Shown here: piece by piece, positions 8,017 through 64,000 of the stretch
Layout of the letters: each line of letters opens with the position of its first letter
How positions within the stretch are numbered: position 1 is the first letter of the stretch
Assembly: GCA_965228855.1 (NCBI GenBank)
Contig: CBDDIJ010000004.1
Coordinates: 1 to 64,000 of the forward strand
DNA: 64,000 bases
Source of the DNA: Candidatus Obscuribacterales bacterium
GTDB taxonomy: Bacteria; Cyanobacteriota; Vampirovibrionia; Obscuribacterales; Obscuribacteraceae
Direction: 5' to 3'
Position numbers and translations under genes: made by a program
The notes under the pieces: generated by a model
The model's input: the letters and a program-made list of their open reading frames with translations, nothing else
Told to the model about the DNA's origin: nothing
Databases searched by the model: none

Positions 8017-8055
8017 ACACTTAATATTCATAAAACTGGTTCTTAAAGAAATGAT

Positions 8056-38122: not shown

Positions 38123-38299
38123 ACATGCCCAAAAATTTTGACTTTTCAATTTACACCAGTTACGCACATGGTGTATTTGGAAATCCGATTACACTATTTA
38201 GATTTCACCTGTTAAAAATTGACTTCGAGTAATTGGATTTCCAAATACACCATGTGCGTAACTGGTGTAAATTGAAAAGTCAAATTTTTAGGGCCATGT
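38123..38299. repeat. MITE-like inverted repeat: ~70-bp arms (38123-38192, 38229-38299), ~36-bp spacer
   Basis: TTTGACTTTTCAATTTACACCAGTTACGCACATGGTGTATTTGGAAATCC has an exact reverse-complement copy downstream. Confidence 0.9.
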
Positions 38300-44461: not shown

Positions 44462-47400
44462 TTAGTATAAGATTTTAAATGTCGCGAGCTCGAATGGCTC
44501 TAAGGTAATTGTCTCCTTAGATCTTAGCTTCTCACTAACTTTATAGGCTCTTTCGCTTTCCTGATCTGGCAATTTAGACTCAAGAGTTTTTATCTTGGAT
44601 TTTATGAGATTGAGCGGATTCATCAGCACATCAGTTTCGTACTCTGTTTTCATATAAGAAAAGTACTTGTTTTTATCTAAAATTCCATTGAGAAGGTACT
44701 TTGTGCTGGAGTCAAGCTTAGTCGACTTGTTCATAAACGGAGCCACTGGAATTCGGATACTTGAGTTAGACCTATTTCTTAGCTTTATAAATGCATCTCC
44801 GTTTTGTTTTGTCTCAAGGCCGACAAATTCGATTTGGTCAAAGAACGAATCTGATTCAATAAAGCTTATGACTGTATTAAAGGACTTTATAAACTCACTG
44901 ATTGTCTGATTTTCATATTTAATTTTGCTTAATTTAATTTGCGAGTTGATTAAATTAGAAGCATTTCTAAAATCTCCAATAAACTTGCTGCTGTTGGACA
45001 ACCCGATTGCAACATGAAGAGTTGAGATATTTGAATCTCTTAGAACATTATTCGTGAATTTATCATCTTGATTGCCAATGGATCGCTGGATTATGAATTC
45101 GAATTCTGTTCCTAAATTTTGACAACTTGTAGTGTGACTGTTCACGGTCCAAAATATTTTTTTATTATTTTGCTTGGCTACTCCTTCAACTGCTGGATAT
45201 GTATTTAGTCCAAAAATAGAGCTGCTTTCTGAGCTTTGGTTTGATGATTCTATCAGTTTATTTGAAACTGCTTCTGAAAGACTTATGTAATCTCTTTGAG
45301 TGTAGAACATCGAATCACTTACATAAAACTGAGAGTCTTTTGTAAGAACATCAAATCGGAGAGCTATTTCTTTGAAGTTATTTAGTTTTGTTTTAACTGT
45401 TGTTACAGGAAACTTTGAATGCTTTGTTAATGTTACAAAAATCTCGATTAAATCACTCTCATTTGAAGTGGAGTGATTGTTAATTGCTCCAATAAAATGG
45501 ACTTGAGATACAAGACCTCCTTTGAATTTGGTCGCAGAGATAATACTTATATTTGAATGGGTTGCCTCTTTTGCAGGCTGGAATGTATAATATCCTGAGT
45601 GAGTTCCTTCTGTAGGATACTCGAATATTTTTATTGCTAACTCAACTGAATCACCTTCAGAATTTAAATATGTAATAACTTTCGGTAAAAAGAGATTATT
45701 AAGTTCAACTGAGATTAAATTATTACTTAATATTTTATCAGTGCTTTCCTTCAAGTCAGTTTCGATGGAAGGAACAGAACAATAAGTTTTATATTTGTTT
45801 GTTCAATCATTTAGATCAAAGATGTGTCTAATAAAGTAAACTTTTGTCTCTAGTGGCTTTAAATCTATTTCAAAATATAAATACTTCTTCGAATGATCTT
45901 TATTAATTCCAATATTGCTTGAATCAAAATTAAAGAAAGAGCAATTTGTAATTTGAGATTCAACAGAATTCAAATTTTCATTAAAAACTGCAACTTGAAG
46001 TGCATCAATTGTAATATTAACAATCTCCTTTCGCTCTTGCAAAGAAGGGTTAAATATCGAGACAGGATATAAGTCACTAGAAATATTTCCGTTTAAAAAG
46101 TACATCACTTCTTCTTTATCATTATCGTTGATTTCTTGCATTGTTTTATTTTTAAAATTAAAAGTTGCAGAATCTAAAGTTTTAATTGAGATCATCCGAT
46201 CAATTTCAGATGATACATCCGAAATTGTTTTATTGAGGTCTGAATCGTAAACTTTGTCTGTATAGACTCCTGTTATTGTATTATGGTTTAACATAGTTGA
46301 TGTACTCTGTTTTAAATAAGTTAACTTATTAAAATCTTTACTATTTGGTTTACGAGGTCTTCCAAAATTAATCCCATCTAAATGATTAATTAGAAAAATG
46401 GAGGAATATGCTCTCATTTTATTAAATAAATTTCTTATTTGCTGCTTAAATACAGGATGAGTGGTATAAAACCCTGACCAAAAGTCAGTATATTGTTTAC
46501 TATTATTGCTATTAGGATCTTTGATAAATTTATCATCATATGGAATAAAATCTCCGTTAAAGTAAGAAAACTTTCTATTTTCTGATTTAAAATCATTGTT
46601 TATTTGCTCAAAGTATTCGTCAATAGTAGAAAATTTATAAGATATATACTTGTATTGAGTCCAATCTCTCACGAGTCTTTGAATTTCTGTCATATAATTA
46701 TCAATGCAGTAGAATGTAGTTTCTGCATCGATAAAAGATCCATCTCCTCCAAAAATGATAGCAATATCATCAGTAAAGTCATATGTATTAATATGTGGTT
46801 GAATAACCTCTTCAAAGAATCTTCTCGAGTTCTTGATGTCTATCAAAGGATCTCTTCAGTTAATTGTTTTGCTATCAGCAAAGTTAAACGGTTCCTTAAT
46901 TTGAGGATTTTTTATTGTTGAATGCACAAATATTCTTTGGTTTGATGATGAGCCGCCAGAATTATGTCCTTCCCAGACAAAATTTAAATTCTGGTATTTT
47001 GCTAAATCTAATTTTTCTGCAGATCCAATACGTGACGTCACTAAAGAATCTATTCCTAAAAGAGAGAAAAGTGTAGGAGTTGCTGCGGTTTCACCATATG
47101 TATCAGTTTGCCATCCGATTTTTGGAATAATTTCAAAGTTTTCATATAAAAAATCCTGTCCAGTCACCATTTGATCTATGATACTTTGATATTCCGGAAT
47201 TGCTTCATCATATGTAGTCCACCCTCCATTAGTGAAATAAAATCTCTGCTCATTAATTAACCGTTCTGCTTGCTGTTTTCTTTGAGAAGAAGCTTGCTTA
47301 TACCACCGTGCAAAGTAATAAGTTTCAGTCCAAGTAAATCGATACCTGACATCTTCATCCAAAGAGTCAAGGACAGATTCGATCATAAATTTAGCGCGTT

Positions 47401-47566
47401 CATTGAAAATCTGGTCTTTAGTTCTAGCCAGCTCTGAATCCAAATAGCTGTAGGGGATGATGTAAATATTAAGGTTGTACTTCCAGCCAACTTCAAAAAT
47501 AAACCTGCTGATCAGCGAAACAATTCCAACAATAAGGATTAGCGTCAAGAACCATTTTCATTTCAT
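44462..47566 (-). CDS. GH38 alpha-mannosidase-like protein (1034 aa single ORF; TGA=Cys at 47560, 46858, 45805)
   Basis: The three track ORFs share one frame and are separated only by TGA. Hydrophobic N-terminal anchor; GH38 motifs RFTWTE, FTNGGW, GWQTDTYG, FWSGFYT, NTYP, TLEPFE. Confidence 0.9.
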
Positions 47567-47638
47567 TTTTTCAAATTTTTATCAAATAATTGAAAAAATT
47601 ACTGTCAATTATTAAAGCCGATTTAAACATAATTAAAT

Positions 47639-49464
47639 ATGTCAAGCAAAAATAAAATTGGAAGGGATGAAGATGATCACAGCAAAGACAGCGACAGGAA
47701 CGATGATGACAGACGGAAAGAAAGCAGACATAAAAGGTAAGCTTTGTTCTTCTGGTTTTCTGTTATCATCCTATTCCAATTCCTTATCTTATAGCTCAAA
47801 GCATAAAGACGAAAAGGAAAGAAAACATAAGAAAAAGAAGAAAAGTGATCATAAAAAAGAGAAAAAGACGAAGAGAAGCTCTAGTAGAGATGGCCACAAC
47901 AAATCAAAGAAGCATAAGAGCAAGAAACGACATAGAAGGAAACGCTCTGATAGGTCGAGCTCAAGATCGAGAAGATCAAGTGAAGATTCGCGTTCTCAAT
48001 CTAGCTCTGATTTAAATTCTTCGAGCAAAGACTCGACTAAAAAGCGGGACAAGAAAAATGAAAACAAAGATAAAGTTATACAAATAACTCTTTCTGCTGC
48101 TAATCTCCCACCAGTTCCAAATCTATCAACTCAATTTGGAGATTTTGATAGTAAAGATTTAAAAGTTAACCTCAAGGACTTTGTTAGTTACAAAAAGAAA
48201 GTGATAATTTCAAATCTGCCTCTGAATGCTTCTGAAGATGAAATTTTAACTTTCCTTAATACTTACATCAGTACATTTAGAGCTTTAACCATAAAAGAAG
48301 GAGGCCAAGGTGCAGATGACGAGGAAAGGAGAGAAAAGACAAAAAATGACTCAAATGTCATTGATAATATTGAAATTAGAAACGGTATATACAGGTATGG
48401 AGTCATACTCATTGAAGACAAAGACGATATTGAACATTGAGTCAGTATTGATGGAACTGAATGGAAAGGGCAAAAAATTCGAGTTCGCAGGACTAAAAAA
48501 TTCATAGAAGAATACAATAAAGAAATAGATAAAAGATTGGGTCTTAATGCCCAAAATCCAATGGCGATGGGTATTCCAGGAATTCCTGGATCAGGAGAAG
48601 CTGAATCAGAAAATAAGATTTATATGGGAGGAATTCCCACTTCAATGAACTCTGAAGATGTTCGTAAAATATGTGCTGCATTTGGCCCACTAAAATCTTT
48701 TAATTTGGTGGTTGATCAACAAAACAAAATTATGAATAGAGGATTTGCATTCTTTGAGTATTCTAATGATAAAGATGCTGAAAAAGCTATTAAAGGCTTA
48801 GATGGTTTTGAAATTATGGGAAAGAAATTAAAAATACAAAAAGCGTCTCTTGGAGCAAAACCTCCAGCTGTTCAAAAGGCATCTGCAACTGTTGGATTCA
48901 AAAATTATATTGAACCATCGCAAAGAGTTAAAATTCCATTATATGCTTTAACTCCAAGTAGAGTTGTGCAATTTTTGAATATGATAACTCCCGAGGATTT
49001 ATTAGATGATTTCATTAAAAAGGAAATTTTTAAAGACATTGTGAATATTTGTAAGTTCTCGATTACTTTTATATTTAATTATAATATCAATAAATTTTAA
49101 TTTAGGATCACTAGAACTATCCAAAGATGTAGTCGATATCAAAGCTCCGTCTCCAGATGAGAAAACTGGATATTGAACTAAGGGAGTAGGAAAAATATTT
49201 GTAAAATTTAATCACATAGTTGCTGCTAAGCAAGCAAGATTTCATCTTAGCGGTCGCAAATACAGTAGTTTAAAAATAATTTAAAATACATTAGTGTATC
49301 TATATTAAAACCTAAAAATAGTACGCTATTAAGGGAGAATTTAACATTTAAATATTTGAGAATGAAACATATTGGACTAGCTGTATAATGGAAGAACAAT
49401 TATTGGATGATTCTATCCAGAGCATTATTTCGATACAAATGAATTCGACATCTCTGCAGATTAA
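47639..49464 (+). CDS. U2AF2: Splicing factor U2AF large subunit (introns 47737-47794 and 49051-49105; IES 49261-49385)
   Basis: RS-rich N-terminus, RRM1, RRM2 (KIYMGGIP...FGPLKSFNLV...RGFAFFEY) and UHM (VVQFLNMITPEDL...GVGKIFVKF...LSGRKYNGRTII). TGA=Cys at 48438 and elsewhere. Confidence 0.92.
49261..49385. other. Internal eliminated sequence (IES), TA-bounded, 123 bp excised, in the U2AF2 last exon
   Basis: TACAGTAGT...ACTAGCTGTA inverted ends. Removal leaving one TA restores ggt cgc aaa tat aat gga aga (GRKYNGR). Confidence 0.85.
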
Positions 49465-49804
49465 TTCTTTAATACTCATCAATATGACAATTCCACTTTC
49501 AATATCAATGTGTATATTTGTGATTCACGAATTATAATCTTAAAAACTAAAAAAAGAGAAATTCAGTTTAATATACTATTATATTTTTAACTAATAAATT
49601 TTTGTATAATATTATTTTTATAGTGCAAATAAAACTTTTTCCTAAAAAATATATAAATAAAATCAAAAAAAAATTACATTAATTTTAATTGCTTGTGTAA
49701 TTAATTAAATTTATTAATTTAAAATTAATTCAGCAAATTAATATCCCAACTGCAACTTTTGAAATTGAGATCTTAGATGTAAGCTGATTTAAAGCAACTA
49801 AGAT

Positions 49805-50844
49805 TTATGATTTAGTACTTGATTGAGCGTTGATGTTGATCATTGTATTTTTGAGTCCAACTAACAGCTGACTGTCTTTGTTTTTAATAATATTCATCAA
49901 AGAAATGTAATCAAGTAATCCATCGTTTGGAGTTAATCCAAGAATGGTTGAAGCATCAGTATATGATAACTTTTCCGAGGTGATTGTATTATTGATTACC
50001 TGAGATTGCGCTTCATTTAAAATTCTAATTGCACTTGCATCAGCAGTTGCAAAAATGATCTGTATTTGCTTATCTGCTTCAGAAATATCGACATTAATGC
50101 TTTCGCGGATAGTCGTAGCACTTTGCTCATACTTTTTGGTTTCTCTCTTTTGGACTTCGACTTGAGTCGAGACAATGGAGTCTTCGTAGGAATTAGGAAG
50201 ATCTATTTCGATCATTTGGAAAGCTACAAGTGAGGCATAAGTATTGGATAAAGTTGCGTTGAGCCTTTTAGCAATTGAATTTCCAATTTCGCTTCTCTTT
50301 CCCCAGTATTCTGGAGCATTGTAGAGACTAGCCTCTTCCAAAATAATGTTTTTGGCTTGCTTCTTAAAAGTTTCATGATATCTAACATTCGTCAGCTTGT
50401 AAAGTTTAGGAATATCATTCTTATAAAGTTTGTACTGGAATGAAACATGGAGAGTCAACCCTAGTCCTTCTTTTGTTCTTGTTTGTAGAGGAGCTTCATC
50501 TCTAGTTTGTCTGTCAGAGAATTCAGTGTGGATCATAGTTGCAGGGAACTTACAAATAGCAAAAAAAAATTAATACAAAACTATCCTTGATATTTGATTA
50601 AAGCTTAAAACTTAATATCATTAAAATTTGAAACTCAAACGTTCAGTTTTTTTGCTGTAACAAAGTGATTAACCGGGCCGACAAAATAAAGCCCTCCTTC
50701 GTATACTTCATCTCCTGTAGATTTTGAAATGATGTTATACGTCATTCCATATTCAGTTGGTTCAACTGAGTCCCACATGAATGAGAACCCGATGACTAAT
50801 ACAAGTGCAACAACACCTGCTCCAATAAGGATTGCCTTCTCCAT
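49805..50844 (-). CDS. SPFH/band 7 (prohibitin-like) domain protein interrupted by an IES
   Basis: N-terminal TM segment, VEPTEYG, GLYFVGP..HFVKFP, RTKEGLGLTLHVSFQY, coiled-coil C-terminus. Confidence 0.88.
50551..50659. other. IES, TA-bounded, 107 bp excised, in the SPFH gene
   Basis: TACAAATAGCAAAAAAA...TTTTTTTGCTGTA inverted ends. Excision joins ORFs 50635-50844 and 49805-50536 in frame (HFVKFPATMIH). Confidence 0.75.
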
Positions 50845-50930
50845 TGTTTAAAAGATCTATTATAAACTAGATATAATTTATTTCTATTTTGCGAGAAAAC
50901 TCATCCTCTCGATACTAATAAAATATTGAA

Positions 50931-52245
50931 ATGAAAAATAGCAAAAGGGACTCAGAGAGCGCTGAAATTAGAAAGTAAGTAGGCAATCCGCTGATATCAG
51001 CTTATCTATTCTGTTAATTTACAAAATAAACTCGACTCGCTATAAAATTCACAAATTTCTGAATTGTACAAAGAGCAAACTGAGTTCTGCTCAATAAATA
51101 CTAAATCTTATTGTTGATTCATGAAGTTTTGTTGCACTTAATAAAAATGAATATTTTAATTAATCAAAACACTTCTAATATTCAAATTGAATTAGTCGTG
51201 TCGATCAGGATGTGATATTTTAGTTTGGCTATGCATATTTATTAAAGTTAAAATCATGATTTTTACTATAAATCATTTAGAAATCAGTATGGAAGAGGCA
51301 GGAATAGCAAGAGAATAGGACTGTAAGAATACTTCTATTGCAAATACTCCACTTTAAAAATAGATACAAATCAATGTTATATAAAATCATGAATCACTTA
51401 ATTCATATAATAGATCCCAATATGACTTTAAGACTATTCCAGATCAACTAACCGGAAATAAAACAAAGAATTATGAATGCAGGAGCTTAGGAAATATGTC
51501 AACGTCAAACTCAAGAAGTAAAAGGATGTCTAATCAGCAAGAAGGAGTGCTCTGCACCACGTTCAGTAATAAAAATTGCATGAATTTTAATGAGACAGAG
51601 ATAACCAACAATACAGCTCCTGCCAATTTTTGGAATAAAGTACTTCAGTATGTTCAAGGGAGAAATAAAGATAGCAACTTATTTGAAAAATATGTGGAGA
51701 TGAAGAAGGCAAAGAGAGAAATTGAAGTGAAATTTAGCTCAGATCTTAAAGCCTGCGAAACTGTGCTAAACTCAAGAGAACTATTTTCCAAGTACATATT
51801 TGATTCATATTTATTGCCTGAAATCAAATCCAAAGGCGCGATGTTTAAAGAGGATGATAAATACAAAATGTATATGAACTTTATCAATGATGAGCAGTTT
51901 TATATTAAAATCAAAAACAATTACTTACTTAAAGAGGTGAGGAGGGATTCATAATCTTTAGATTGAAAAATTTAAGCATAAAAAGTTAAAGTATGCACAA
52001 AATACAAACATAAAGAGAGGTAAAGATGGACTTCTTAATTAGTTTAGCTAATTCAAAAGTATCTAATAAATAAGCGATTCATCGAGTTCTGCAAGATGGC
52101 TCTTATGAACAAAGGAGTTGTACTGCAAAATATTAAAGACTTTAAGTACATTCCAAGGAGACTTATGAAACCAAATGTAAATAGCTTATCTGGTGAGTTT
52201 TTGGAAGCATGAAGTTGACTTCTCGTTTATCAAATTAAGATTTAA
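50931..52245 (+). CDS. Hypothetical multi-exon protein; 3' end approximate
   Basis: The exon starting at ATG 50931 splices via GTAAG..TAG introns into ORF 51496-51954. Divergent from the SPFH gene. Confidence 0.5.
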
Positions 52246-52452
52246 ATAAAATTACCAAATAGTCATTATATCTTCTTTATATGGGCTTGAAATATATCCT
52301 CATTTAAAAAAGTATGATTACTAAAAATTTACTATGAAATATAAACATCAATAGAACAGGACTCATCAAAATATTTATTGTTAATCAATTAAATTAAAAT
52401 GAACCAAAATCAATTTTATCTTATTGATAAGAAGGAGTGTTAATAACTGATT

Positions 52453-52927
52453 AAATAAATAAAAATATTCGATAATTTATGATCTGTTAATTATTAACGA
52501 GGTCGTGTTTGCAAAGGTGGTGCTTTCTTTTCAAAACTGTCAACATTTGCCGGAATGTGGGTAACAGAACAGATTATTAATGATCTTCAGCCAGTCTGGA
52601 CCGAGCCAGTTTGAGTTGTCGAAGAAGTCAAAGAGAGCAAAATTAAAATCATTGTTTTGCTATTTTGAAACTATAATTTATAATTTTCATTGAAAATCCA
52701 AAGCTAAGCTTCAAAATAGCAAAACAATGATTTTAATTTTGCTCTCTTTGACTTCTTCGACAACTCAAACTGGCTCGGTCCAGACTGGCTGAAGATCATT
52801 AATAATCTGTTCTGTTACCCACATTCCGGCAAATGTTGACAGTTTTGAAAAGAAAGCACCACCTTTGCAAACACGACCTCGTTAATAATTAACGGATCAT
52901 AAATTAAAAGAATATTTTTATTTATTT
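52453..52927. repeat. Near-perfect palindrome: arms 52453-52669 and 52710-52927, 40-bp spacer
   Basis: Arms are reverse complements over ~215 bp with only a few mismatches, all near the outer ends. Confidence 0.97.
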
Positions 52928-52961
52928 CAATTTTTTCATATCCTCGTGGGGTTTTGGGTTT
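52926..52961 (+). other. Macronuclear-type chromosome end embedded internally: TTCAA-N17-GGGGTTTTGGGTTT
   Basis: TTCAA at 52926-52930, exactly 17 nt (52931-52947), then a G4T4G3T3 telomere-like repeat from 52948. Confidence 0.8.
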
Positions 52962-53375
52962 AATAACTGATTAAATAATAAAAATTTGGCGATAATTTTT
53001 ATTTTTTACTATTTCAATAAATGCTTTTTTAGAATTAATCAGCTAGTTTTTAAAATAACAAATTATGAATATATTTGAATAAGAAATCCAGAATAACTAA
53101 AATATTTTAATTTTTGCTTTAATAACATCTAGTTTTATTTCGAACAAGAAATAACATATTAAAAAATTTAACATTTTTACTATGGCTTTATTTAAAGACT
53201 AGCTTATGCTAGTAATTTTTGAAAAACAAATAATCTTATTTAAGATTTTAATCAAATGGCTTTAAATTTGCAAATTTGAGCCTTTCATTAATTTTACAAC
53301 TATAAATAAGATTTAATGTTTGACATTTTAAAAGTAGAAATAATATTTAATTAAAATTTTAACAATTTTTTTAGA

Positions 53376-54930
53376 ATGCGGAAGTCCTTTAATTAGCAAA
53401 AGAGCAATATTTACTCCAACCAGAGATCTCAAACAGAGTTTTGAATGTGATATAAGCAACAATAGATTCATCGAAGATTGTGAAAACCCTCAAAACAACA
53501 GTAAAAAATATTTATTTAAATAAAAGTGATGAACTTTACCTATTCAAACAACATTTCTAAGGAAATTGTTTAGATCTAATAAAAGAAGTTTACAAGAAGT
53601 GGACAAATTATGGAGACTTCCAGCCAATGACTCCAGAAATTGGAGAAAGTAAAACTCCATTAATCAGTCGAAGCAAAGTCACAAACATCAACTATCAATT
53701 TGTATGATAGATATAAAGCTTTTTACATTACTTTCAATATTTTCCTCACAACATTAAATTTTAATTTATTTAGTTGTTCATGTAAAAATGCATCAAGTTA
53801 GTAAATACAATTCTAACTTCATCCTTCCACATTTTCTATCTAATATAAAATAGTCATAAAGCTAATAACAGCGGTTTTAGTAATACAAATATATAGAATT
53901 CAGAGAAAGTTCAATCATCTGGAGGAAGCAAGTACGAGAATATATGAATGTCGAACCACAATCACATGAGGACGCCAAATATCGACTCGTAAGTAAAACA
54001 ATTAACCAATCTGGCTAAGCATTTTCATCCCAAGGGTTGCAACATATAAAGTTTGTATCAACCGTAACTTCTCTACTTTTCTTTAAGTTTCGATCTGTGT
54101 TGTCATATTCATAGAAGAATACTCTTAAAATAAAATGCATTTTTACTTAAGAAACCAAATCAATTCCAAATAAATTTGACAATTGGCTGATTCAAAACTT
54201 CCTCTGGATTACATCAGCAACAATTATGAGCGCACTTACAACTTATCATTATGGAATAATATTTCTTGATTTTAAATTGCATTTTTAGAAACAACGAAAT
54301 ATCTGAGAAAGACTCGAATTCCGAATCTGAAAGTACTGATAAATCAACCGAAAATAAAGCAAAAAAGCTCACCTCTACTTTCCAAAGGAACAAAATTGTA
54401 TGCTTTTTGCTTAGAAAATTTTTTTTCAACTGACTTTTATAGGGAAACAATAGACATTTTAAGAGTGGGTCGAATAAATTTAAAATTCATCACATTTCAA
54501 AACCAGACCGACAATCTACAATTAGAAAACTGATAAAGCAAGGGACGTTGAGGATCATTCCTGAACGAATAAAGGATATTTTCACGAATTCTGCGTGAAA
54601 GAATGGTGTTATTAGTCCAACAAAGACGAAAAATAAGTACGTGATATAACTTCTCAAGTTTGTTCAGCATTACTAACAATGCATTTTTACTTGAACAGTT
54701 TAACCATGAAAATAGATGAATGAGTTCTGACATAATTGTAAAAGATATCAAATAGCTTATGTAAGTATTCCATTACTCGCTAATTGTAGTTTTTCTTTCA
54801 TTCAATACAATGCCATGATTTCTTTAGCAAAATATCGAACAAATAATATAAAATCACCTTCGTTTAAAAAGAGAAGACAATGAGTTCAAAATTCATGGAT
54901 TGATGAGAAAAAACAAATAGAATAAGATTT
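53376..54930 (+). CDS. Hypothetical multi-exon protein; boundaries uncertain
   Basis: Coding-like segments with GTAA..TAG introns and TGA codons; no recognisable domain. Confidence 0.3.
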
Positions 54931-55001
54931 ATAAAAAATCAGATAAATTTAAAGCTATTTTGATACAAAAAAGTGCACAACAATATATAAAATTAATTAC
55001 T

Positions 55002-55027
55002 TTCAACTTGTTTTATATCATAAGGGG
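55002..55027 (+). other. E-Cbs plus telomere seed at the ciliate/bacterial junction: TTCAA-N17-GGGG
   Basis: TTCAA at 55002-55006, 17 nt (55007-55023), G run from 55024, then an abrupt switch to GC-rich trbJ sequence. Confidence 0.8.
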
Positions 55028-55768
55028 GTAGCCGGCGCCGGGCTCAAGAAACCGGCGTCGCTGTTCGCGGCCCTGTTCGGCAGCGGCCGCCTGCTCGGCG
55101 GCGGAGAGGGCGTCGGCACGGCCATTGGCGGCGAGCAAGGCGGTGAGGTCGGCGAGTTGCTGCGCCTGAAGGGCGAGAATCTGATTGCCTGCCTGGGTCG
55201 CCTGCAGCGCACCGGTCGCGCCCTGGCTCTCTCCAACCAGAGCCGAGAGTTCGGCGCGCTGCGTCTCGATGTTGCCGACGACGCCGGCCTGGACGCGCAT
55301 CGCATCCTGGAGCGCGCCGACAGTGTTGCCCCAGCGCTCCCGAGCCAGGTCGATGAGGTCCTGGTCGGAAGCGGAGAGGTCCATGTCGGCGTATTGCTGG
55401 GAAAAGATCTGATCGATCTGCTGGACGTCGAAGGCGATGCGCTGGGCCTCGCCCAGCAACTGCTGGGTGCGCTGGACGGACTGCAGAATCTGCTGGAGCG
55501 ATGAATAGGGCAGGCTCGCCAGATTGCGCGCCTGGTTGATCAGCATCTGGGCTTCGTTCTGCAGGCTCTGGATCTGATTGTTGATCTGTTCGAGGGCGCG
55601 GGCCGCTTGCAGCACGTTCTCGGCGTAGTTGGAGGGGTCGAAGACGATGTCGCCGAAGCCGAAGAGCGCGTGGGCAGGCGTGACGGCGAGAGGCGACAAC
55701 GCAACCGGCAGCGTCAGCATGGTGGAGACGAACAGGATGTGGCGGATGCGCGAGCGTGGACGAGTCAT
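55028..55768 (-). CDS. trbJ: P-type conjugative transfer protein TrbJ, 3' end truncated at the junction
   Basis: Signal peptide (..PAHA), IVFDPSNYAENVLQAARALEQINNQIQSLQNEAQMLINQARNL, SQGATGALQATQAGNQ. The last residues (LMI*) come from ciliate DNA. Confidence 0.93.
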
Positions 55769-58239
55769 GGAAGAATCTCCTCTGTGGGTTGATCGAGCGC
55801 CGCGGCCGGAGCGGCGAGATTGCTGAGGTTGGGGATGATGTCGGCGGCCCAATCGAGGTCGCGAGCGCGCAGCCAGGCGTCGAGAAAGCCCTCGCGCCCA
55901 TGCTCGGCCAGCACCTCTTCGATGCGGGCGTGATCCGACTTTGCCGACGCCGCGCACAGCGCCAGGGCGACGTCGCCGAGGCCGAGTTCGAAGAGCCGGT
56001 TGCCGCGGCGGGACTGCGCGTAGTAGTCGCGCTTGGGCAGGGCCCGGGCGATGATCTCGATCTGCCGGTCGTTTAGACCGAAGCGCCGATAGATTGCGGT
56101 GAGTTGGGGCTCGATCGCGCGATCGTTGGGCAACAGGATGCGCGAGTGGCAGGAGTCGATGATCTCGGCCGCGATCGTGCTCTTTTCGAGCTGGGCCAGC
56201 GACTGGGTCGCGAAGATCACGCTGGCGTTCTTCTTGCGAAGCGTGACCAGCCACTGGGCAAGTTGGCTGGCAAAGCCGGGATCGCTCAGCGCCAGCCAGC
56301 CCTCGTCGACGATGACGAGCGTCGGTCTGCCATCGAGCCGCCCGGCGATGCGGTGGAAGAGATAGGCGAGCGTGGCCGGCGCGGCGCCGGTGCCCAGCAG
56401 TCCCTCGGTCTCGAAAGCCAGGACGGACGCCGATCCGAGGGTTTCCGTTTCGGCGTCGAGCAGCCGTCCATAGGGCCCGCCGACACAATAGGGCTCGAGG
56501 GCGCGCTTCAGGTCATTGGACTGGAGCAGCACCGTGAGCCCGGTGACGGTCCGTTCCGCGACGGGGGCCGAGGCAAGTGAGGTGAGCGCCGTCCAGATGT
56601 GCTCCTTGACGTCCGGCATGATGAGCACGCCCTCGCGCGCGAGCATGGCGACGAGCCAGTCGGCGGCCCAGGCGCGTTCGGGCGTGTGTTCGATGCCGGC
56701 AAAGGGCTGGAGCGATACCGAGGTATCGGCGCCTTCGGTCAGTTCGCCACCGAGGTCGTGCCAGTCGCCGCCCATGGCCAGCACGGCGGTGCGGATCGAC
56801 CCGCCGAAATCGAAGGCGAAGACCTGCGAATTCTCGTAACGGCGGAACTGCAGGGCCATCAGCGCCAGCAGCACCGACTTGCCGGCCCCGGTCGGCCCGA
56901 CCACTAGGGTGTGGCCGACGTCACCAACATGAAGGGATAACCGGAACGGGGTCGAGCCTTCCGTCCTGCCAAAGAGCAGTGGGGGTGCACGGAAATGCTC
57001 GTCCCGTTCCGGCCCCGCCCACACCGCCGAGAGCGGGATCATGTGGGCGAGATTCAGTGTGCTGATGGGAGGCTGGCGCACATTGGCGTAGAGGTGCCCG
57101 GGCAGCGTGCCGAGCCAAGCATCGACAGCGTTGATGGTCTCCACCATGCCGGTGAAGTCGCGGCCCTGGATGACCTTCTCGATCAGCCGGAGCCTTTCGT
57201 CGGCAACACCGGGGTCGGCGTCCCAGACCGTCACCGTCGCCGTGACATAGGCCTCGCCGGCATAGTCGGCGCCCAGTTCCTGGAGCGCGAGATCCGCATC
57301 GGCCGCCTTGTTCGCCGCGTCCGTGTCGACCAGTGCGGAAGCTTCGTTGGTCAGCACTTCCTTGACGATCGCGGCGATTGACTTGCGTTTAGCGAACCAT
57401 TGGCGGCGGATGCGTGTCACCAGCCGCGTGGCATCGGTCTTGTCGAGCAGGATGGCGCGGGTCGCCCACCTGTAGGGGAAGGCGAGGCGGTTGAGCTCGT
57501 CGAGAATTCCCGGGGTGGTCGTGCCCGGAAAGCCGACAATGGTCAGGACCCGCAGATGTGTATCGCCCAGGCGCGGCTCGAGCCCGCCGGCGAGCGGCTG
57601 ATCGGCGAGCAGTGCGTCGAGATACATCGGCGTCTCGGGGACGCCGACGCGATGACGCTTGGTCGAGACCGTCGAGTGCAGGTAGGTGAGCGTCTCGGCG
57701 TCATCGAGCCAGCGGCATTCGGGCATGAAGCCGTCGAGGAGCGCCAGTACGCGATCGGTGCGATCGACGAAGCCCTCGAGGATTTCCCAAGGATTGACCC
57801 CCGTCTGCTCGCGGCCCTCGTAGAGCCAGGTTTCGGCGCGGGCGGAATCCTCCGCCGGCGGCAGATAGACGATGGTGAGCAAGTAGCTCGACTCGAAGTG
57901 CGTTCCAGCTTCCTCGAAATCGGCCTTGCGCTCGGTATCGACCAGGGCCGAGGCGGCATCGGGGAATGTGCTTCGCGGATAGGTCGCGGCTTCGTGCCGC
58001 TGCGCCTCGACGAAGATGCTCCAGCCCGAGCCGAGGCGTCGGAAGGCATTGTTGAGGCGGCCGGCGACGCCGACCAGTTCGGCCGGCACCGAACTGTCGA
58101 GATCGGGGCCGCGAAACTTGGCCGAGCGCTGGAGACTGCCGTCCTTGTTGAGGACGACGCCCTGGCCGACCAGGGCGGCCCATGGCAGGTAATCCGCGAG
58201 GCGGGCGCCGGTGCGCCGGTATTCAGCGAGGTTCATCAT
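55765..58239 (-). CDS. trbE: Conjugal transfer ATPase TrbE (VirB4 family)
   Basis: MMNLAEYR..LADYLPWAALV start; Walker A GPTGAGKS; Walker B VDEGW; FATQSL. Confidence 0.97.
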   Translation of the reverse strand: MMNLAEYRRTGARLADYLPWAALVGQGVVLNKDGSLQRSAKFRGPDLDSSVPAELVGVAGRLNNAFRRLGSGWSIFVEAQRHEAATYPRSTFPDAASALVDTERKADFEEAGTHFESSYLLTIVYLPPAEDSARAETWLYEGREQTGVNPWEILEGFVDRTDRVLALLDGFMPECRWLDDAETLTYLHSTVSTKRHRVGVPETPMYLDALLADQPLAGGLEPRLGDTHLRVLTIVGFPGTTTPGILDELNRLAFPYRWATRAILLDKTDATRLVTRIRRQWFAKRKSIAAIVKEVLTNEASALVDTDAANKAADADLALQELGADYAGEAYVTATVTVWDADPGVADERLRLIEKVIQGRDFTGMVETINAVDAWLGTLPGHLYANVRQPPISTLNLAHMIPLSAVWAGPERDEHFRAPPLLFGRTEGSTPFRLSLHVGDVGHTLVVGPTGAGKSVLLALMALQFRRYENSQVFAFDFGGSIRTAVLAMGGDWHDLGGELTEGADTSVSLQPFAGIEHTPERAWAADWLVAMLAREGVLIMPDVKEHIWTALTSLASAPVAERTVTGLTVLLQSNDLKRALEPYCVGGPYGRLLDAETETLGSASVLAFETEGLLGTGAAPATLAYLFHRIAGRLDGRPTLVIVDEGWLALSDPGFASQLAQWLVTLRKKNASVIFATQSLAQLEKSTIAAEIIDSCHSRILLPNDRAIEPQLTAIYRRFGLNDRQIEIIARALPKRDYYAQSRRGNRLFELGLGDVALALCAASAKSDHARIEEVLAEHGREGFLDAWLRARDLDWAADIIPNLSNLAAPAAALDQPTEEILP

Positions 58240-58248
58240 CGCGGCACC

Positions 58249-58509
58249 TCACAATCCGAGATGCGCGGGGATGCGCAGATGCCGGCGTACGACCTCGACG
58301 AAGAGCGGATCGCGCCGGGCCGCCCAGACGGCCGCCAGATGTCCGATCGCCCAGAGCACGATGCCGACGATCCAGAGCCGAAGGCCGAGACCGAGCGCGG
58401 CGGCCAGCGTGCCGTTGAGGATCGCGACCGAGCGTGGGGCGCCGCCGAGCAGGATCGGCTCGGTCAGAGCCCGACGGACGGGTGCGGAAAAGCCCGGAAC
58501 CTCTTCCAT
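58249..58509 (-). CDS. trbD: Conjugal transfer protein TrbD (VirB3 family)
   Basis: MEEVPGFSAPVRRALTEPILLGGAPR...WAARRDPLF; the start overlaps the trbC stop. Confidence 0.93.
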   Translation of the reverse strand: MEEVPGFSAPVRRALTEPILLGGAPRSVAILNGTLAAALGLGLRLWIVGIVLWAIGHLAAVWAARRDPLFVEVVRRHLRIPAHLGL

Positions 58510-58838
58510 CAGATCACGGCCCCGCCGCCGAAGCTGAAGAAGGAAAGGAAGAAGGAACTGGCCGCGAAGGCGATCGAGAGACCGAAGACGATCTGGACCA
58601 GCCGCCTGAACCCGCCCGAGGTGTCGCCGAAGGCGAGCGTCAGGCCGGTGACGATGATGATGATCACCGCGATGATCTTGGCGACCGGCCCTTCGATGGA
58701 TTCGAGGATCTGCTGCAGCGGCTCTTCCCAGGGCATGGACGATCCGGCCGCGTAGGCGGCGTTCGTCATGACAAGGGTGAGAGAGGTGGCGAGCGCGGTC
58801 GCCGCGAGGCGCACACGGGCACGTAGCGTCATTTTCAT
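58509..58838 (-). CDS. trbC: Pilin TrbC (VirB2 family)
   Basis: AYAAGSSMPWEEPLQQILESIEGPVAKIIAVIIIIVTGLTLAFGDTSGGFRRLVQIVFGLSIAFAASSFF...GGGAVI. Confidence 0.95.
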   Translation of the reverse strand: MKMTLRARVRLAATALATSLTLVMTNAAYAAGSSMPWEEPLQQILESIEGPVAKIIAVIIIIVTGLTLAFGDTSGGFRRLVQIVFGLSIAFAASSFFLSFFSFGGGAVI

Positions 58839-59824
58839 TGCGGGGCTCCATTGGGTTCGGGGGACGTGATCGTGGGGGCAAGGTCGTAGTCGCTGGTCGC
58901 TCCGAGCCCGGTGACGTCGACGAGTTCGGCGAGCCGCCGTGCTGACCCGCGACCCGAGAGCACGGCGATGACGTCGATCGTCTCGGCGATGAGCGCGCGC
59001 GGCACGGTGACGACGGCTTCCTGGATGAGTTGCTCGAGGCGCCGCAGGGCGCCGATGGCCGTACCGGCATGGATGGTGCCGATGCCGCCCGGATGACCGG
59101 TCGACCACGCCTTCAACAGGTCGAGCGCCTCGGCGCCGCGCACCTCGCCGATCGGGATCCGATCGGGCCGCAGCCGAAGGGAGGAGCGGACGAGTTCGGA
59201 CAGGGAGACGACGCCATCCCGGGTGCGTAACGCCACGAGGTTGGGCGCGGCGCATTGCAGTTCACGGGTGTCTTCGATGAGAACGACACGATCGCCAGTG
59301 CGGGCGACCTCGGCGAGAAGGGCGTTCGTCAGCGTCGTCTTGCCGGTCGACGTGCCGCCGGCAACGAGGATGTTCTTCCGTTCGGCGACGGCCCGGCGCA
59401 GTGCGTCGGCCTGCGCATCGGACATGATGCCAGCCGCCACATAGTCCGCGAGCGAGAACACCGCGACAGCGGGCTTGCGGATCGCGAAGGCAGGTGCCGC
59501 AACCACCGGCGGCAGCAGACCCTCGAAACGCTCCCCCGTTCCGGGCAACTCAGCCGAGACGCGCGGGGCACCGGAATGGACTTCGGCGCCGACATGGTGC
59601 GCGACAAGGCGGATGATGCGTTCGCCGTCCGTGGCCGACAGTTTCTCGCCGGTATCGGCAAGGCCACTCGCCAAGCGGTCGATCCAGAGCCGCCCATCGG
59701 GGTTGAGCATCACCTCGACGATCGCAGGATCGTCCAGAAACCTGGCGACGGCCGGGCCGAGGGCGGTGCGCAGCATGCGCGTGCCGCGTTCGACCGCCAC
59801 CGACTCTCTGGAAGAAACAACCAC
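58835..59824 (-). CDS. trbB: P-type conjugative transfer ATPase TrbB (VirB11 family)
   Basis: [44 protein letters not shown]. Confidence 0.97.
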
Positions 59825-59982
59825 GTCGTCCCCACTCCGCTTGTGGGCCCGCGCGACGGGGGCCCTGGATCGGGGATGAGTAGAAAAGGCAGGAATGGGC
59901 CGGCGGCAACAAGCCTCAAGCGGTCGTCGTACCCTGGCGTGGAATTACAGGGGGACGGCGGATAGGCCTGTTCGGCGTCAGC

Positions 59983-60444
59983 CTATTCCGAGCCGCTCGC
60001 CGACGAATCGGGCGATGGCATGACGTCTTCGGGTATCTCGTTCCGCAGCTTCGGTCCCTGCGCGAGCCGGCGGCCGAGCGCAGCGACGAAGGCATCGTAG
60101 CGCTTGCCCGACTGGGCACGCGCCGCCGCCTGGGCCGGCTCTGGAAGCTGTGGCGTCGTCGTCAGCCAGAAGCGCACGAACACCGCGAGTGTCTCGACCG
60201 ATATCCCGAGATCCCGTTCCAGCCGATTGAGACGCCGATCGATCTGGTCGAGCCGTTTGGTCATGGCCGCTTCCTGCCGCTCGGCGGCGTCGGGCGAGAG
60301 GAAGGATGCGATCGCGGCCTCAGCCACCAGCGACCGGGACAGGTCACGACGGGCTGCGTGCTCCACCAGCGCCTTCATCACCGGCGGATCGAGATAGATG
60401 GAGAGGCGCTGCTTCTTGCCGGGCTTCGCCATGGCGGGCCTCAC
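59983..60444 (-). CDS. Ribbon-helix-helix (CopG-like) protein
   Basis: RLSIYLDP...LSRSLVAEAAIASFLSPD...ETLAVFVRFWLT; sits at the usual position between traG and trbB. Confidence 0.88.
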   Translation of the reverse strand: MRPAMAKPGKKQRLSIYLDPPVMKALVEHAARRDLSRSLVAEAAIASFLSPDAAERQEAAMTKRLDQIDRRLNRLERDLGISVETLAVFVRFWLTTTPQLPEPAQAAARAQSGKRYDAFVAALGRRLAQGPKLRNEIPEDVMPSPDSSASGSE

Positions 60445-62426
60445 AGCATGCCGTCGCCAGGATCGAGATCGGCCTGCCGTGCGATCCTCTGCATCGAGCG
60501 ATTGAGGTTCTGAGCGAGGACAGCCGCCTCGTCATCGGCGTCACGATCGACATCGAATTCGTCGTCAGGGGTTGGCGTCGACTCGGGCACGATCTTGCTG
60601 CTGAGTTCGGGCTGCCGGCGTTTCTCGGATTCGGTCGGATCCTCGTCATCGACCGGCGTCACGGAGGGGAGATGGCGGGCCGCGAGGTCCGGGTGCTGGG
60701 GCATTCGAAGTCCGCTCCAGTCGTCCTCGGTCGCGGCATGTCGATGCTGGATCGCAGGTGGTGGCAGGATGCGTTCCTTGAAGCGGCCGTCTTCGTAGTA
60801 GCGTGCTTTGCGTGCGCGGATGGGGTGGATTCCGGCGACCATGACGATCTCGTCGCTTGGCGGAAGCTGCATGACCTCACCGGGGGTCAGCAGCGGACGC
60901 GCCGTCTCTTGGCGGGACACCATCAGGTGGCCGAGCCAGGGCGAGAGGCGATGGCCGGCATAGTTTTTCATCGCCCGCATTTCGGTCGCGGTGCCGAGTG
61001 CGTCCGATACGCGCTTGGCTGTCCGCTCGTCGTTGGTCGCGAAGGAGACGCGGACGTGGCAGTTGTCGAGGATGGAATTGTTCGGCCCGTAGGCCCGCTC
61101 GATCTGGTTGAGCGACTGGGCAATGAGGAACGACTTGAGGCCGTAACCGGCCATGAAGGCCAGCGCCGACTCGAAGAAGTCGAGGCGGCCAAGCGCGGGA
61201 AACTCATCGAGCATCAGCAACAGGCGGTGACGGCTCGACCTGGCATTGAGGTCTTCGGTGAGGCGCCGGCCGATCTGATTGAGCAGGAGACGCACCAGCG
61301 GCTTGGTCCGGTTGATGTCCGATGGCGGCACGACGAGGTAGAGCGTCGTAGGGCGATCGGCCGCAACGATTTCGGCGATGCGCCAGTCACAGCGCGACGT
61401 CACCGCCGCCACGACCGGATCACGGTAGAGTCCGAGGAAGCTCATCGCCGTGCTCAGCACGCCTGAGCGTTCGTTGTCGGACTTGTTGAGCAGTTCGCGC
61501 GCGGCCGACGCCACCACGGGGTGTGGACCCGCATCACCCAGGTGGCGGGTTTTCATCATCGCGGCGAGCGTGGCCTCGATCGAGCGGGCCGGATCGGACA
61601 GGAAGTTGGCAACGCCCGCTAGCGTCTTGTCCTTCTCGGCATAGAGCACGTGGAGGATGGCACCGACCAGGAGGGCATGCGAGGTCTTCTCCCAATGATT
61701 GCGGCGCTCGAGCGAGCCCTCGGGGTCGACCAGGATGTCGGCGATGTTCTGGACATCGCGAACTTCCCACTCTCCACGTCGCACCTCGAGCAGCGGATTG
61801 TACGCGGAGGACGCTGCGTTCGTCGGATCGAACAGCAGCACGCGGCCGTGTCTTGCTCGAAAGCCGGCCGTGAGGCTCCAGTTCTCGCCCTTGATGTCAT
61901 GGACGATGGCCGAGCCCGGCCAGGTTAGCAGCGAGGGAATGACGAGGCCCACGCCCTTGCCCGATCGCGTCGGTGCAAAGCACAGCACGTGCTCAGGGCC
62001 ATCGTGGCGCAGGTAGTCGTGTTCGTAGCGGCCGAGCACGACGCCGTCAGTCCCAAGAAGGCCCGCCTCCTTGATCTCAGGGGGTGTGGCCCAGCGTGCC
62101 GAGCCGTAGGTTTCGATATTGTCCGCCTCGCGTGCGCGCAGAACCGACATGAAGATCGCTGCCGCAATGGACGCGAAGCCACCGGAGGCAGCGATGATGC
62201 CACCCTCTTGGAAGATCGACCGCGCGTAAGCGTCGTAGGAGAACCACCACCAGAAGAAGGCGGGTGGGTAGTAGACCGGCCAACCCGCGAGATGAAACCA
62301 AGGTGCGCCTAGTTGTGGCTGAAAGCCGAGGCGCCAAGCCGTCCATTGAGTGGCGCACCAGACCGCCGTTAGCACAATCAGCCCGACAACAACGATCTGA
62401 CCCCAGAGGATTTTCGTTCCCGACAC
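60441..62426 (-). CDS. traG: Type IV coupling protein TraG (VirD4 family)
   Basis: YGSARWA, HVLCFAPTRSGKGVGLVIP, DIKGEN, LMLDEFPALG, IAQSLNQ; GTG start with an AAGGAG RBS upstream. Confidence 0.97.
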   Translation of the reverse strand: MSGTKILWGQIVVVGLIVLTAVWCATQWTAWRLGFQPQLGAPWFHLAGWPVYYPPAFFWWWFSYDAYARSIFQEGGIIAASGGFASIAAAIFMSVLRAREADNIETYGSARWATPPEIKEAGLLGTDGVVLGRYEHDYLRHDGPEHVLCFAPTRSGKGVGLVIPSLLTWPGSAIVHDIKGENWSLTAGFRARHGRVLLFDPTNAASSAYNPLLEVRRGEWEVRDVQNIADILVDPEGSLERRNHWEKTSHALLVGAILHVLYAEKDKTLAGVANFLSDPARSIEATLAAMMKTRHLGDAGPHPVVASAARELLNKSDNERSGVLSTAMSFLGLYRDPVVAAVTSRCDWRIAEIVAADRPTTLYLVVPPSDINRTKPLVRLLLNQIGRRLTEDLNARSSRHRLLLMLDEFPALGRLDFFESALAFMAGYGLKSFLIAQSLNQIERAYGPNNSILDNCHVRVSFATNDERTAKRVSDALGTATEMRAMKNYAGHRLSPWLGHLMVSRQETARPLLTPGEVMQLPPSDEIVMVAGIHPIRARKARYYEDGRFKERILPPPAIQHRHAATEDDWSGLRMPQHPDLAARHLPSVTPVDDEDPTESEKRRQPELSSKIVPESTPTPDDEFDVDRDADDEAAVLAQNLNRSMQRIARQADLDPGDGML

Positions 62427-62489
62427 GACTCTGCTCCTTTCGAACAGAGGTCGGTCAGTCTACATCAGGGCTCAAGGTCAATTCGCCCT

Positions 62490-63470
62490 GTGTCGCACTG
62501 CAGCGAGCGGTATCGAGAAAGTACAGGCGCGATGCGATATCCACGCGCGGTGACGGCGGACACGATGGATGAAATGGATTGGGCGCTTTGGTCCTTGCGA
62601 TACCTGAAGGAAGCTCGAGCAGCCATACACGACGAGTTCAATGACGTAATGGGCGAAATTCCTGGCTACCACGGTGCACGTGGGGAAAGCTGGTACTCGA
62701 CCTGCAAGAACATCATTCAGACGTTGTATCACTACTCATTGGAGTTCGTCGGTGGTCTGCAGATACCGAGTGCTGAGTTCCCCTCACCCGGGGCGGTTGA
62801 GGAGAAGCTGGCGGAGTACCGCGCTTTCGTCCATGCGATGCTGGTCGATCTAAACAGAGAGGAAGATGCTTACCGCGCCAAGCACAAGGTGGATGGACCT
62901 CCGTTCTTGGTGAGCGCGGCACGCAAGCAGGTAAGCTACCTGCTGAGCGCGATTGACTACGTCACTTCAAAAAGGCCGAAGCCGATTGCCGCTGCACCCG
63001 AGATAGATGACGTTGACATTATCGTGGAACTTGGACGGCGATTCCACGAGTCGGTGCTCAGTTTGCGGAAACACCCGCACGGTGGTTCGACGATCGAAGT
63101 TGGCGACGAATGGGACTGCCAATATCTCTTCAGAGCGATCCTTGCCGGCTACTTCGCCGATATTCGGGACGAGGAATGGAACCCATCCGTGGCCGGCACA
63201 TCGGCGCGGTGTGAGTTCTTCTTGAAGACGCTGCGCCTAATGGTCGAACTCAAATATGTGCGCAAGTCCGGTGACACTGCAAAGGTCAAAGCCGAGTTAG
63301 CTACCGACCTCCTCGACTACGGGGCCAATCCACTCGTCGATCACGTGGTGTGTCTCGTCTATGATCCAAGCCATGCGCTTAAGAATCCGGTAGCACTCCA
63401 GACCGATCTGTCGGGACCGACGAAGGGCCTGAAGTCGGTGAGGGTCGTTGTGTCTCCACCGCGCGATTGA
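62490..63470 (+). CDS. Cargo protein with C-terminal DpnII/MboI-like PD-(D/E)xK nuclease domain and unrecognised N-terminal domain (true start may be 62532 or 62565)
   Basis: DEWDCQYLFRAILAGYFADIRDEEWNPSVAGTSARCEFFL...VELKYVR...ELATDLLDY...LVYDP resembles the REase_DpnII-MboI pattern. Opposite strand to its neighbours and visibly less GC-rich. Confidence 0.75.
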   Translation: MSHCSERYRESTGAMRYPRAVTADTMDEMDWALWSLRYLKEARAAIHDEFNDVMGEIPGYHGARGESWYSTCKNIIQTLYHYSLEFVGGLQIPSAEFPSPGAVEEKLAEYRAFVHAMLVDLNREEDAYRAKHKVDGPPFLVSAARKQVSYLLSAIDYVTSKRPKPIAAAPEIDDVDIIVELGRRFHESVLSLRKHPHGGSTIEVGDEWDCQYLFRAILAGYFADIRDEEWNPSVAGTSARCEFFLKTLRLMVELKYVRKSGDTAKVKAELATDLLDYGANPLVDHVVCLVYDPSHALKNPVALQTDLSGPTKGLKSVRVVVSPPRD

Positions 63471-63515
63471 TGAAGTCGTCGGAGAGACTGAAAGTGGCCC
63501 ACGGCTCGTCCAACC

Positions 63516-64000
63516 TCATAGACCCAGTCCCCGCTTCCGGCTGAAACTCCAATCGACACCGCCGTCGCCGCGGGCGACGCCTGAGATATGCTGGCCCAGC
63601 CTCTTGTCGAGCGAAGGCGTCCACGGGACGAGCTGGAAGCCGAGCCCATCGTCGATCATGGCGAAGCGGCCCGATGCCAGCGTGAAGCGCTGACGGTACG
63701 TGCCGGCGACATAGCCGCCTGTGGGTGCCTTGTTGAAAGGCCGGCCAAGTTCAGTGGCGAGTTTGTCGCCGAGGGCCTCCACCTCACGTTGACGCAGCGT
63801 ATCAAGGAGACGGCGCGTGAAGACCACGCGGCTGCCGTGGCGCTGGGCGAGACCCTCCTCGACCAGATGCTCGGCGCGGCGGTCGAGCGCTTCCCGCACC
63901 TCCCGGCCGAAGCCGCCTTCACCGAGCGCGATCGGATCGTGGCTCACGGCCTGCCGGTCGAGCCAGGTGGCGCCGGCCGCCGAAACCTGGCCGTCAATCG
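63516..64000 (-). CDS. VirD2-like relaxase with DUF3363 C-terminus (RlxS-like), 3' part
   Basis: GATWLDR..., GFGREVREAL..R..HL, YRQRFTLASGRFAMIDDGLGFQLVPW...DWSFSRKRGLGL*. Confidence 0.9.
   Translation of the reverse strand, partial: IDGQVSAAGATWLDRQAVSHDPIALGEGGFGREVREALDRRAEHLVEEGLAQRHGSRVVFTRRLLDTLRQREVEALGDKLATELGRPFNKAPTGGYVAGTYRQRFTLASGRFAMIDDGLGFQLVPWTPSLDKRLGQHISGVARGDGGVDWSFSRKRGLGL

Follow-up and report, generated by a model that had tools for sequence, protein, structure and literature searches.

To our knowledge, what the ciliate soma hands on to its progeny is taken to be RNA and not DNA. In vertebrates, short interstitial telomeric sequences are found at repaired double-strand breaks and templated insertions arise by microhomology-mediated template switching; repeated switching at short overlaps, in break-induced and polymerase-theta repair, leaves mosaic junctions. 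The TBE elements of Oxytricha carry telomere-like letters at both termini, and include a DDE transposase among their three ORFs. They belong to the Tc1/mariner transposons (PMC9797194, PMC7599177; these and the other papers cited by PMC number are represented here by part of their text). Internal telomeres are already known in spirotrichs from the polytene chromosomes of Stylonychia lemnae, which hold 1000-1500 internal telomeric repeats (cited in PMC7285179), as are gene-fragment hairpins in flies and plants, where Drosophila hpRNA loci and the inverted duplications of proto-MIRNA loci form small, fast-changing families in which old housekeeping targets such as ATP synthase beta occur (PMC10317233). 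Hairpin small-RNA loci are likewise known in Tetrahymena, whose loci for 23-24 nt small RNAs comprise pseudogene-like clusters and intergenic long non-coding RNAs with predicted hairpins (PMC8694037). In Euplotes, the E-Cbs motif, for which a consensus has been given, directs chromosome breakage at a precise distance (PMC7599177), with TTGAA lying 17-20 bp from telomeres (PMC12513430), and the motif has been reported in a third species (PMC10449743).

The locus described here lies in a 64,000-nt stretch of DNA (the window). It is a hairpin that carries a fragment of actin, belongs to a small family and bears a telomere footprint, and differs in this from the re-inserted gene of a first reading (Table 1). 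Like the internal telomeres of Stylonychia, it places a G4T4-type tract in a long germline-type chromosome of an organism with gene-sized somatic chromosomes; unlike them, as far as the citing text describes them, the tract is shorter than two repeats, stands exactly at an E-Cbs-defined site and closes off a fold-back that has a mosaic repeat on its flanks. The long, near-perfect inverted repeat with arms homologous to a host-gene fragment resembles the hpRNA and proto-MIRNA loci described in PMC10317233, but the match to the gene covers just 60 of the ~220 bases of an arm, and the sites of drift from actin differ between copies. The Tetrahymena loci in PMC8694037 are a ciliate precedent for small RNAs from hairpins and gene fragments, although from another ciliate class and, in the text represented here, with neither telomere nor E-Cbs. 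TBE, too, is a germline element with telomere-like sequence and inverted repeats; whereas TBE has such sequence in both terminal repeats, the Euplotes unit is 0.5 kb long, lacks the three ORFs and the transposase, and has telomeric sequence at its right end only. The vertebrate interstitial telomeres and templated insertions share the short tract at a repair junction, the duplicated target and the mosaic with 1-6 nt overlaps; unlike those, the Euplotes tract has its own breakage signal at the canonical distance and thus marks a developmentally processed chromosome end.

Table 1. Features of the fold-back unit and its junctions, in window coordinates.
Feature	Position	Strand	Remarks
Left repeat copy (A)	52440..52478	+	mosaic; sequence comparison
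Left arm of fold-back	52453..52672	+	inverted-repeat search, folding; exact read contig 52537-52669 in X1 and X2
Actin coding fragment, sense	52507..52566	+	near C-terminus (~residues 340-359); 53/60 to L001 1117-1176, last 29 nt exact
Rest of arm	52567..52672	+	related copy differs over 52592-52644 (joint 52591 to 52645); without match in searches
34-nt spacer between arms	52673..52706	.	decayed stem centred near 52690; TTGAA 52690-52694 a possible inward E-Cbs
Right arm	52707..52927	+	inverted-repeat search; exact read contig 52814-52933 in X1
52-codon ORF, probably not a gene	52727-52885	+	right arm; last third is antisense of actin coding sequence
Same actin fragment, antisense	52813-52872		right arm
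E-Cbs	52923..52932	-	fits HATTGAAaHH, core TTGAA 52926-52930; consensus from the part of PMC7599177 represented here
Spacer, E-Cbs core to telomere	52931..52947	+	17 nt
Internal telomere tract	52948..52961	+	G4T4G3T3, GGGGTTTTGGGTTT; pattern search
Right repeat copy (C)	52960..52998	+	start of unique right flank; read contig starts exactly at 52960

The assembly is a mixture of six contigs, with about 57 kb of Euplotes-type DNA in total. The composition of the window changes from 20-36% GC over 1-55023 to 59-68% GC over 55024-64000, the GC-rich part being a bacterial trbJ region. Once TGA is read as a residue, the longest frame of the AT-rich part grows from 446 to 1038 codons (44462-47578), and translation with table 10 yields an alpha-mannosidase, an RRM protein, an SPFH protein, a cyclin, a hydrolase and a glutaminyl-tRNA synthetase; these frames and products identify the AT-rich part as Euplotes-type DNA. 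Four of 22 sequencing runs (X1, X2 and X7 as read contigs, X21 as raw reads) were compared with 49300-55300. Because X1 and X2 may have supplied the assembly itself, and may represent a single data set, they do not count as independent support for the locus, whereas X7 is independent. Run X7 omits 50551-50657, a TA-IES of 107 nt (TA on both sides) in the SPFH/Band 7 gene, and because the window retains it, the DNA is in germline form: removal of the 107 nt gives an unbroken 310-aa SPFH protein, and the window version halts at codon 80. The same run has G4T4 repeats added after 50903. An earlier note on this DNA had called it Euplotes germline, and the TGA frames, the table 10 proteins and the IES excised in X7 confirm that call. 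Beyond the locus, the right flank holds many short plus-strand frames and no long one over 53340-54950, possibly a gene that is split by introns or +1 frameshifts and ends at the E-Cbs of 55002. The bacterial part, 55024-64000, is a P-type conjugative transfer region in which trbJ is severed by the join and is 76% identical to Paracoccus and Mesorhizobium plasmid copies.

The inverted repeat that the earlier note had seen as near-perfect is indeed so, with 200-nt arms at 52473-52672 and 52707-52906 that are 99% complementary, 34 nt apart and mismatched at two positions (52485 and 52670); a gapped alignment stretches the arms to ~52453 and ~52927 (221 nt, 97.7%), which gives a whole fold-back of ~480 bp. 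Its folding z-score is -47.7, with none of 100 shuffles equally stable, and arms and folding together make this a long inverted repeat able to form a stem, as in hpRNA-type loci. The formerly proposed 40-nt loop is the stretch between the perfect stems, and the TTGAA assigned to it is present. This TTGAA stands 17 nt from 52673, a weak coincidence because the site is the symmetry centre of the fold-back and the arm has no sharp end, with a latitude of ~3 nt; telomere addition at 52673 was seen in none of the read contigs listed. That the hairpin itself is an artefact of fold-back reads is unlikely, and this reading was rejected: the centre is contained in an exact 100-nt read contig (52640-52739, depth 9-10 in X1 and X2), exact and diverged centre contigs (8 differences) occur in both runs, and three other hairpins, at 82-87% overall identity, lie in the same 55 kb of a contig that is >99.9% accurate where checked.

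These other hairpins, at 12508-13175, 34167-34529 and 38123-38299, have best stems of 256, 87 and 79 nt at 93, 87 and 89%. Their sequences are not repeated in the assembly and contain no telomere tract, and none of their 11 frames reaches the Pfam cut-off, a weak null result for gene fragments because Pfam misses the actin fragment too. Four long hairpins per 55 kb suggest a common germline class. None of the four shows the G-U wobble bias that would be a sign of selection at the RNA level (2 versus 3 on the two strands of the actin hairpin). A different structure at 7005-8017 is a ~1-kb element whose ~83-bp terminal inverted repeats (87%) contain internal palindromes and G/C runs, MITE-like or IES-like in form.

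Sequence comparison places ~20 actin codons from near the C-terminus in each arm, in sense orientation on the left and antisense on the right. A protein-pattern scan of metagenomes gave two loci from 247 candidates, L001 (actin) and L002, the latter being dropped for want of a nucleotide match. L001 (1-1328) is a complete, telomere-to-telomere Euplotes actin nanochromosome in a public metagenome; on its left, the E-Cbs has the variant form CTGAA, again at 17 nt. Over 60 bases, the arm and L001 agree at 53 (BLAST E 2e-17; 0 of 500 shuffles as good), so that by this 60-bp homology the arms, like those of hpRNA-type loci, match a host gene. A search of PDB with the fragment's frame returned 46 matches, all weak (E 0.39-2.6), of which the first 45 are all named actin and the 46th ACTA2/actin. 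Furthermore, a high-depth X7 contig (~54, versus 5-11 for the SPFH gene) matches only 52516-52566 and diverges on both sides, its loose ends there being L001 1096-1125 and 1177-1206, and X2 has the same actin flank behind 52863. Longer actin homology, to the 3' end and subtelomere, is not significant (174, 386, 342 and 438 of 500 shuffles as good).

The earlier note had drawn attention to a 52-codon ORF in the right arm. The frame is present, on condition that TGA is read as Cys, but it is without homologue, and its last third runs antisense to actin. Relatives at E <= 1 were found for neither the ORF (0 of 28 candidates, proteins of 105-2000 aa) nor the opposite frame (0 of 51, 119-2000 aa), Pfam matches none of five arm frames, and PDB gives nothing credible for four frames of the non-actin part of the arm. 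Because the arm consists of the actin piece and sequence without protein match, the ORF is most likely an accident. No protein or RNA gene was recognised in 52673-52947, where none of 23 Rfam matches reaches the gathering score and the best are generic hairpin models. A U2 snRNA or other ncRNA in the arm was dismissed, no such match being among those 23 up to E 10, as was a likeness to copine/C2, for which there is no Pfam hit. An exact 26-nt arm pattern has no match in JGI metagenomes.

As previously claimed, TTCAA is followed by exactly 17 nt and by GGGGTTTTGGGTTT at the right end of the unit; the compound TTCAA-N17-telomere pattern appears in none of 100 shuffles, and the 17-nt spacing is calibrated by both ends of L001 (CTGAA and TTCAA) and by a somatic end in X7 (variant TTCTA), and recurs at two joins in the assembly. 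G4T4G3 occurs once in the window, here, whereas the number expected for the 55 kb of AT-rich DNA under a third-order Markov model is 0.002; for TTCAA at a given place, p = 0.004. The plus strand of the AT-rich part has 16 G4 runs, of which two start 17 nt past a TTCAA, where 0.06 are expected, and these are the internal tract and the Euplotes-bacterium join at 55024. Examined as a nanochromosome, 52673-52947 thus has the expected G4T4 17 nt behind its E-Cbs at the right end. At the left, a C4A4 tract is found neither in the unit nor among 18 loose ends listed, and the spacing of paired TTCAA/TTGAA across the window shows no peak. The idea that a whole 275-bp gene-bearing nanochromosome had been re-inserted was abandoned for this missing left telomere and for an ORF without relative.

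The unit is flanked by the ~39-bp imperfect direct repeat reported earlier (52440-52478 and 52960-52998; 39 nt, 85% ungapped, 90% gapped), with an exact core of 19 nt; no other exact direct repeat in 55,023 nt reaches that length, and none of 2971 random AT-rich 60-mer pairs shares 19 nt (best 16). The left copy, however, is no clean flank and overlaps the left arm by 26 nt. It consists of 52440-52458, identical to right-flank 52960-52978, then 52453-52470, the exact reverse complement of 52910-52927, then 52470-52478, identical to 52990-52998, with the arm next, and the overlaps at the switches are 6, 1 and ~6 nt. A classical target duplication does not survive this mosaic of right flank and arm, which has the apparent signature of template switching. 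Because such a mosaic can form only if the arm end and the right flank both serve as templates, and random ligation would not give it, it suggests that the two are true neighbours.

TTAA opens both copies of the repeat (52440-52443 and 52960-52963), and the right-flank contig, which starts at the second TTAA, ends exactly at the next telomere-addition site, 55023, with a depth of ~20 versus 15 in the left flank. These limits and depths fit a somatic chromosome that starts at 52960 or one from which the unit has been excised. Long pointers arise by local duplication in E. woodruffi, according to the part of PMC9797194 represented here, and by analogy the 19-nt repeat, which contains TA as IES repeats do, could serve as an excision pointer; none of the pieces listed skips the 520 nt, and a bridging contig would be ~41 nt long by estimate, too short to list. 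An empty-site allele was likewise not seen among the listed read contigs.

The unit is not a one-off insertion, as diverged copies were found in X1 and X2, covering 52527-52627 (7 differences), 52793-52935 (12) and 52645-52734 (8), the last of which crosses both arms and the spacer. Because the diverged copies, ~92% identical, include the hairpin centre, the unit belongs to a small hairpin family. Arm depth is 49-233 versus 15 in the left flank, an excess partly due to actin itself and to overlapping contigs. The copy over 52793-52935 retains the actin letters at 52849, 52853 and 52854, where both window arms differ from actin, so each copy is drifting from actin on its own, and the two window arms nevertheless stay alike; within the actin core, the 52793-52935 copy shows two private changes (variants assigned by distance to contig end). 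Such copies, with 7-12 differences, are what a non-autonomous fold-back or MITE-like element would leave, one with TTAA or TA as its insertion site and gene fragments as cargo, which an E-Cbs and telomere seed would allow to be released as a somatic mini-chromosome. Furthermore, read contigs break exactly at the TTAA that opens each repeat copy, and telomere-bearing elements exist in Oxytricha (PMC7599177 and PMC9797194, in part). A mobile element is nevertheless very improbable, as the earlier suggestion of one must also be judged: its ends are unlike and its telomere is on one side only, no transposase frame occurs in the unit (ORF list, Pfam), and instead of the shared inverted termini and 2-4 nt target-site duplication of a MITE, the outer ends differ and the repeat is 19-39 nt long and mosaic. 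The related copy also leaves the window sequence behind 52935, and neither the 55 kb nor the assembly, with its ~57 kb of Euplotes-type DNA, holds a second copy.

In X1 and X2, a single contig without differences covers the left flank (49384-52443, depth ~15), and another, with one difference, covers the right flank (52960-55023, depth 20-21). At 53066, the window's T is C in both runs at full depth, either through an error in the assembly or because a second allele exists. The left-flank contig stops exactly behind the TTAA at 52443, a break that implies a further path, be it an allele, a related copy or a chromosome end. The check put forward earlier, that single molecules should span the palindrome and both flanks, is answered in part: the hairpin centre lies inside read contigs, but neither 52443/52444 nor 52959/52960 is bridged by any of the 23 read-contig pieces listed. 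Run X7 has a depth of 0 over 52717-52917 and 0.72 over 52918-53118, and is patchy elsewhere too; the Hi-C run X21 placed 0 of 12.8 million reads and is uninformative.

The unbridged right junction leaves room for a reading in which the hairpin family is real and the internal telomere artefactual, a somatic end at 52947 having been chimerically joined to the right flank, or telomere having overwritten germline letters in the consensus. At position 52955 depth is 16.3 in X1 and 35.6 in X2, and a G4T4G4 contig with one G more behind 52955, as in a true somatic telomere, accounts for 8.1 and 11.9 of these; depths so equal (~8+8 in X1; 3 x 11.9 in X2) could mean that a single, ordinary path through a somatic telomere is represented by consecutive pieces. 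Telomere ends do get joined to foreign DNA here, because both Euplotes-bacterium joins of the assembly fall at E-Cbs telomere sites, TTCAA-N17-GGGG (contig C4, 55024, window 55002-55029; contig C3, 1872, 1850-1875), and the join at 55024 is bridged by no compared run. These bacterial joins, however, keep only ~four telomeric G and lead into unrelated DNA, whereas the internal tract keeps G4T4G3T and lands on a 19-nt repeat that is unique in 55 kb. The mosaic left copy, moreover, independently links the arm end to the right flank, no contig among the pieces listed has other letters between 52947 and 52960, and only one internal G4T4G3 occurs in 55 kb with many genes. The telomere join may be an assembly artefact, but this is rather unlikely, and the tract is probably real germline sequence; the hairpin is real in sequence and probably real in the germline.

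The best reading, at a probability of roughly 0.42 and so held tentatively, is that double-strand-break repair with several template switches copied a telomere-capped, somatic-type chromosome end into the germline. In this scheme, an ancestral unit of the hairpin family would have captured a piece of actin, which, judged by the X7 depth of 54 versus 5-11, is among the most abundant somatic chromosomes. After a break in the AT-rich 39-mer, synthesis would have alternated between the broken site and a processed somatic end of the family at overlaps of 1-6 nt. Copying would then have passed the fold-back, the E-Cbs, the 17-nt spacer and 11-14 telomere bases before rejoining at TTAA, which would leave the 19-nt exact repeat. 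The arms were presumably duplicated or homogenised after drift from actin, because both carry three changes absent from the related copy. In development, the E-Cbs might be re-cut at 52947, or the unit might be excised with the 19-nt repeat as its pointer. In Oxytricha, somatic chromosomes have RNA copies that contain telomeres (PMC5513065, in part), by analogy a possible route for the copying of somatic DNA. The earlier note's proposal of somatic DNA entering the germline thus survives as a somatic-type template, the best single reading, and not as an intact gene-bearing chromosome.

Two features speak for a somatic donor, namely the register of the telomere and the capture of a piece of a very abundant somatic chromosome. 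The donor may instead have been a germline end; healing in place predicts the same 17-nt register and a tract that starts with G4. Here a fragmentation nuclease would have cut the germline at the E-Cbs, telomerase would have added ~12 bases and the ends would have been rejoined, the inverted duplication being local and of the same or a later event, with no DNA passing from soma to germline. No two templates of the mosaic are more than 600 nt apart, the germline of E. woodruffi is rich in local duplications (PMC9797194, in part), and the internal telomeres of Stylonychia (1000-1500, cited in PMC7285179, in part) are a precedent. This route is nonetheless unlikely: it leaves the captured actin fragment unexplained, the bases before the cut are not duplicated after the tract, and enzymes of somatic development would have to act on a nucleus that stays germline. 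On the preferred reading of a copied somatic-type end, the unit is most likely a decaying repair scar, and we lean towards a neutral one, because of the drift from actin and the lack of G-U bias.

If retained and transcribed, the unit would fold into a ~220-bp stem with sequence complementary to actin mRNA, making it a possible source of a putative actin-targeting hairpin RNA. The RNA runs X16-X20 contain, as contigs, just 0.06-0.11 of the sequence words and count neither for nor against this. In E. vannus, soma-derived 30-nt RNAs protect matching DNA and tolerate one mismatch (PMC12513430, in part), and by analogy one may speculate that the actin piece favours retention of the unit. A joint reading would combine these elements: a germline hairpin family built from captured pieces of abundant somatic chromosomes, a telomere-capped somatic end copied back, soma-derived 30-nt RNAs guarding the actin-bearing unit from elimination, an E-Cbs that frees a mini-chromosome, and a hairpin transcript giving small RNAs against actin. 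So extended, it is quite improbable.

In the titles and abstracts surveyed, neither an E-Cbs-registered internal telomere nor a Euplotes gene-fragment hairpin family is described; the supplementary repeat annotations of germline papers may hold such features. The words 'palindrom' and 'hairpin' have 0 occurrences in the main texts of PMC12513430, PMC9797194 and PMC10449743. A telomere at the exact E-Cbs distance is a mark written only by somatic-type processing, and, if confirmed in the germline, it would give reverse flow, or the action of telomerase on germline breaks, a footprint that can be searched for. Because TTCAA-N17-G4T4 can be counted in published Euplotes germline assemblies, the question is testable, and a common class of hairpins could supply small RNAs for regulation or take advantage of protection by 30-nt RNAs. 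The shorter TTCAA-N17-G4 pattern also flags artefacts, since telomere ends mark both false joins of this assembly, and TTCAA-N17-GGGG at both bacterial joins has the look of a systematic chimera signature. A further contig, C1, has an abrupt change in composition near base 500 and a low-complexity end, and is probably chimeric too.
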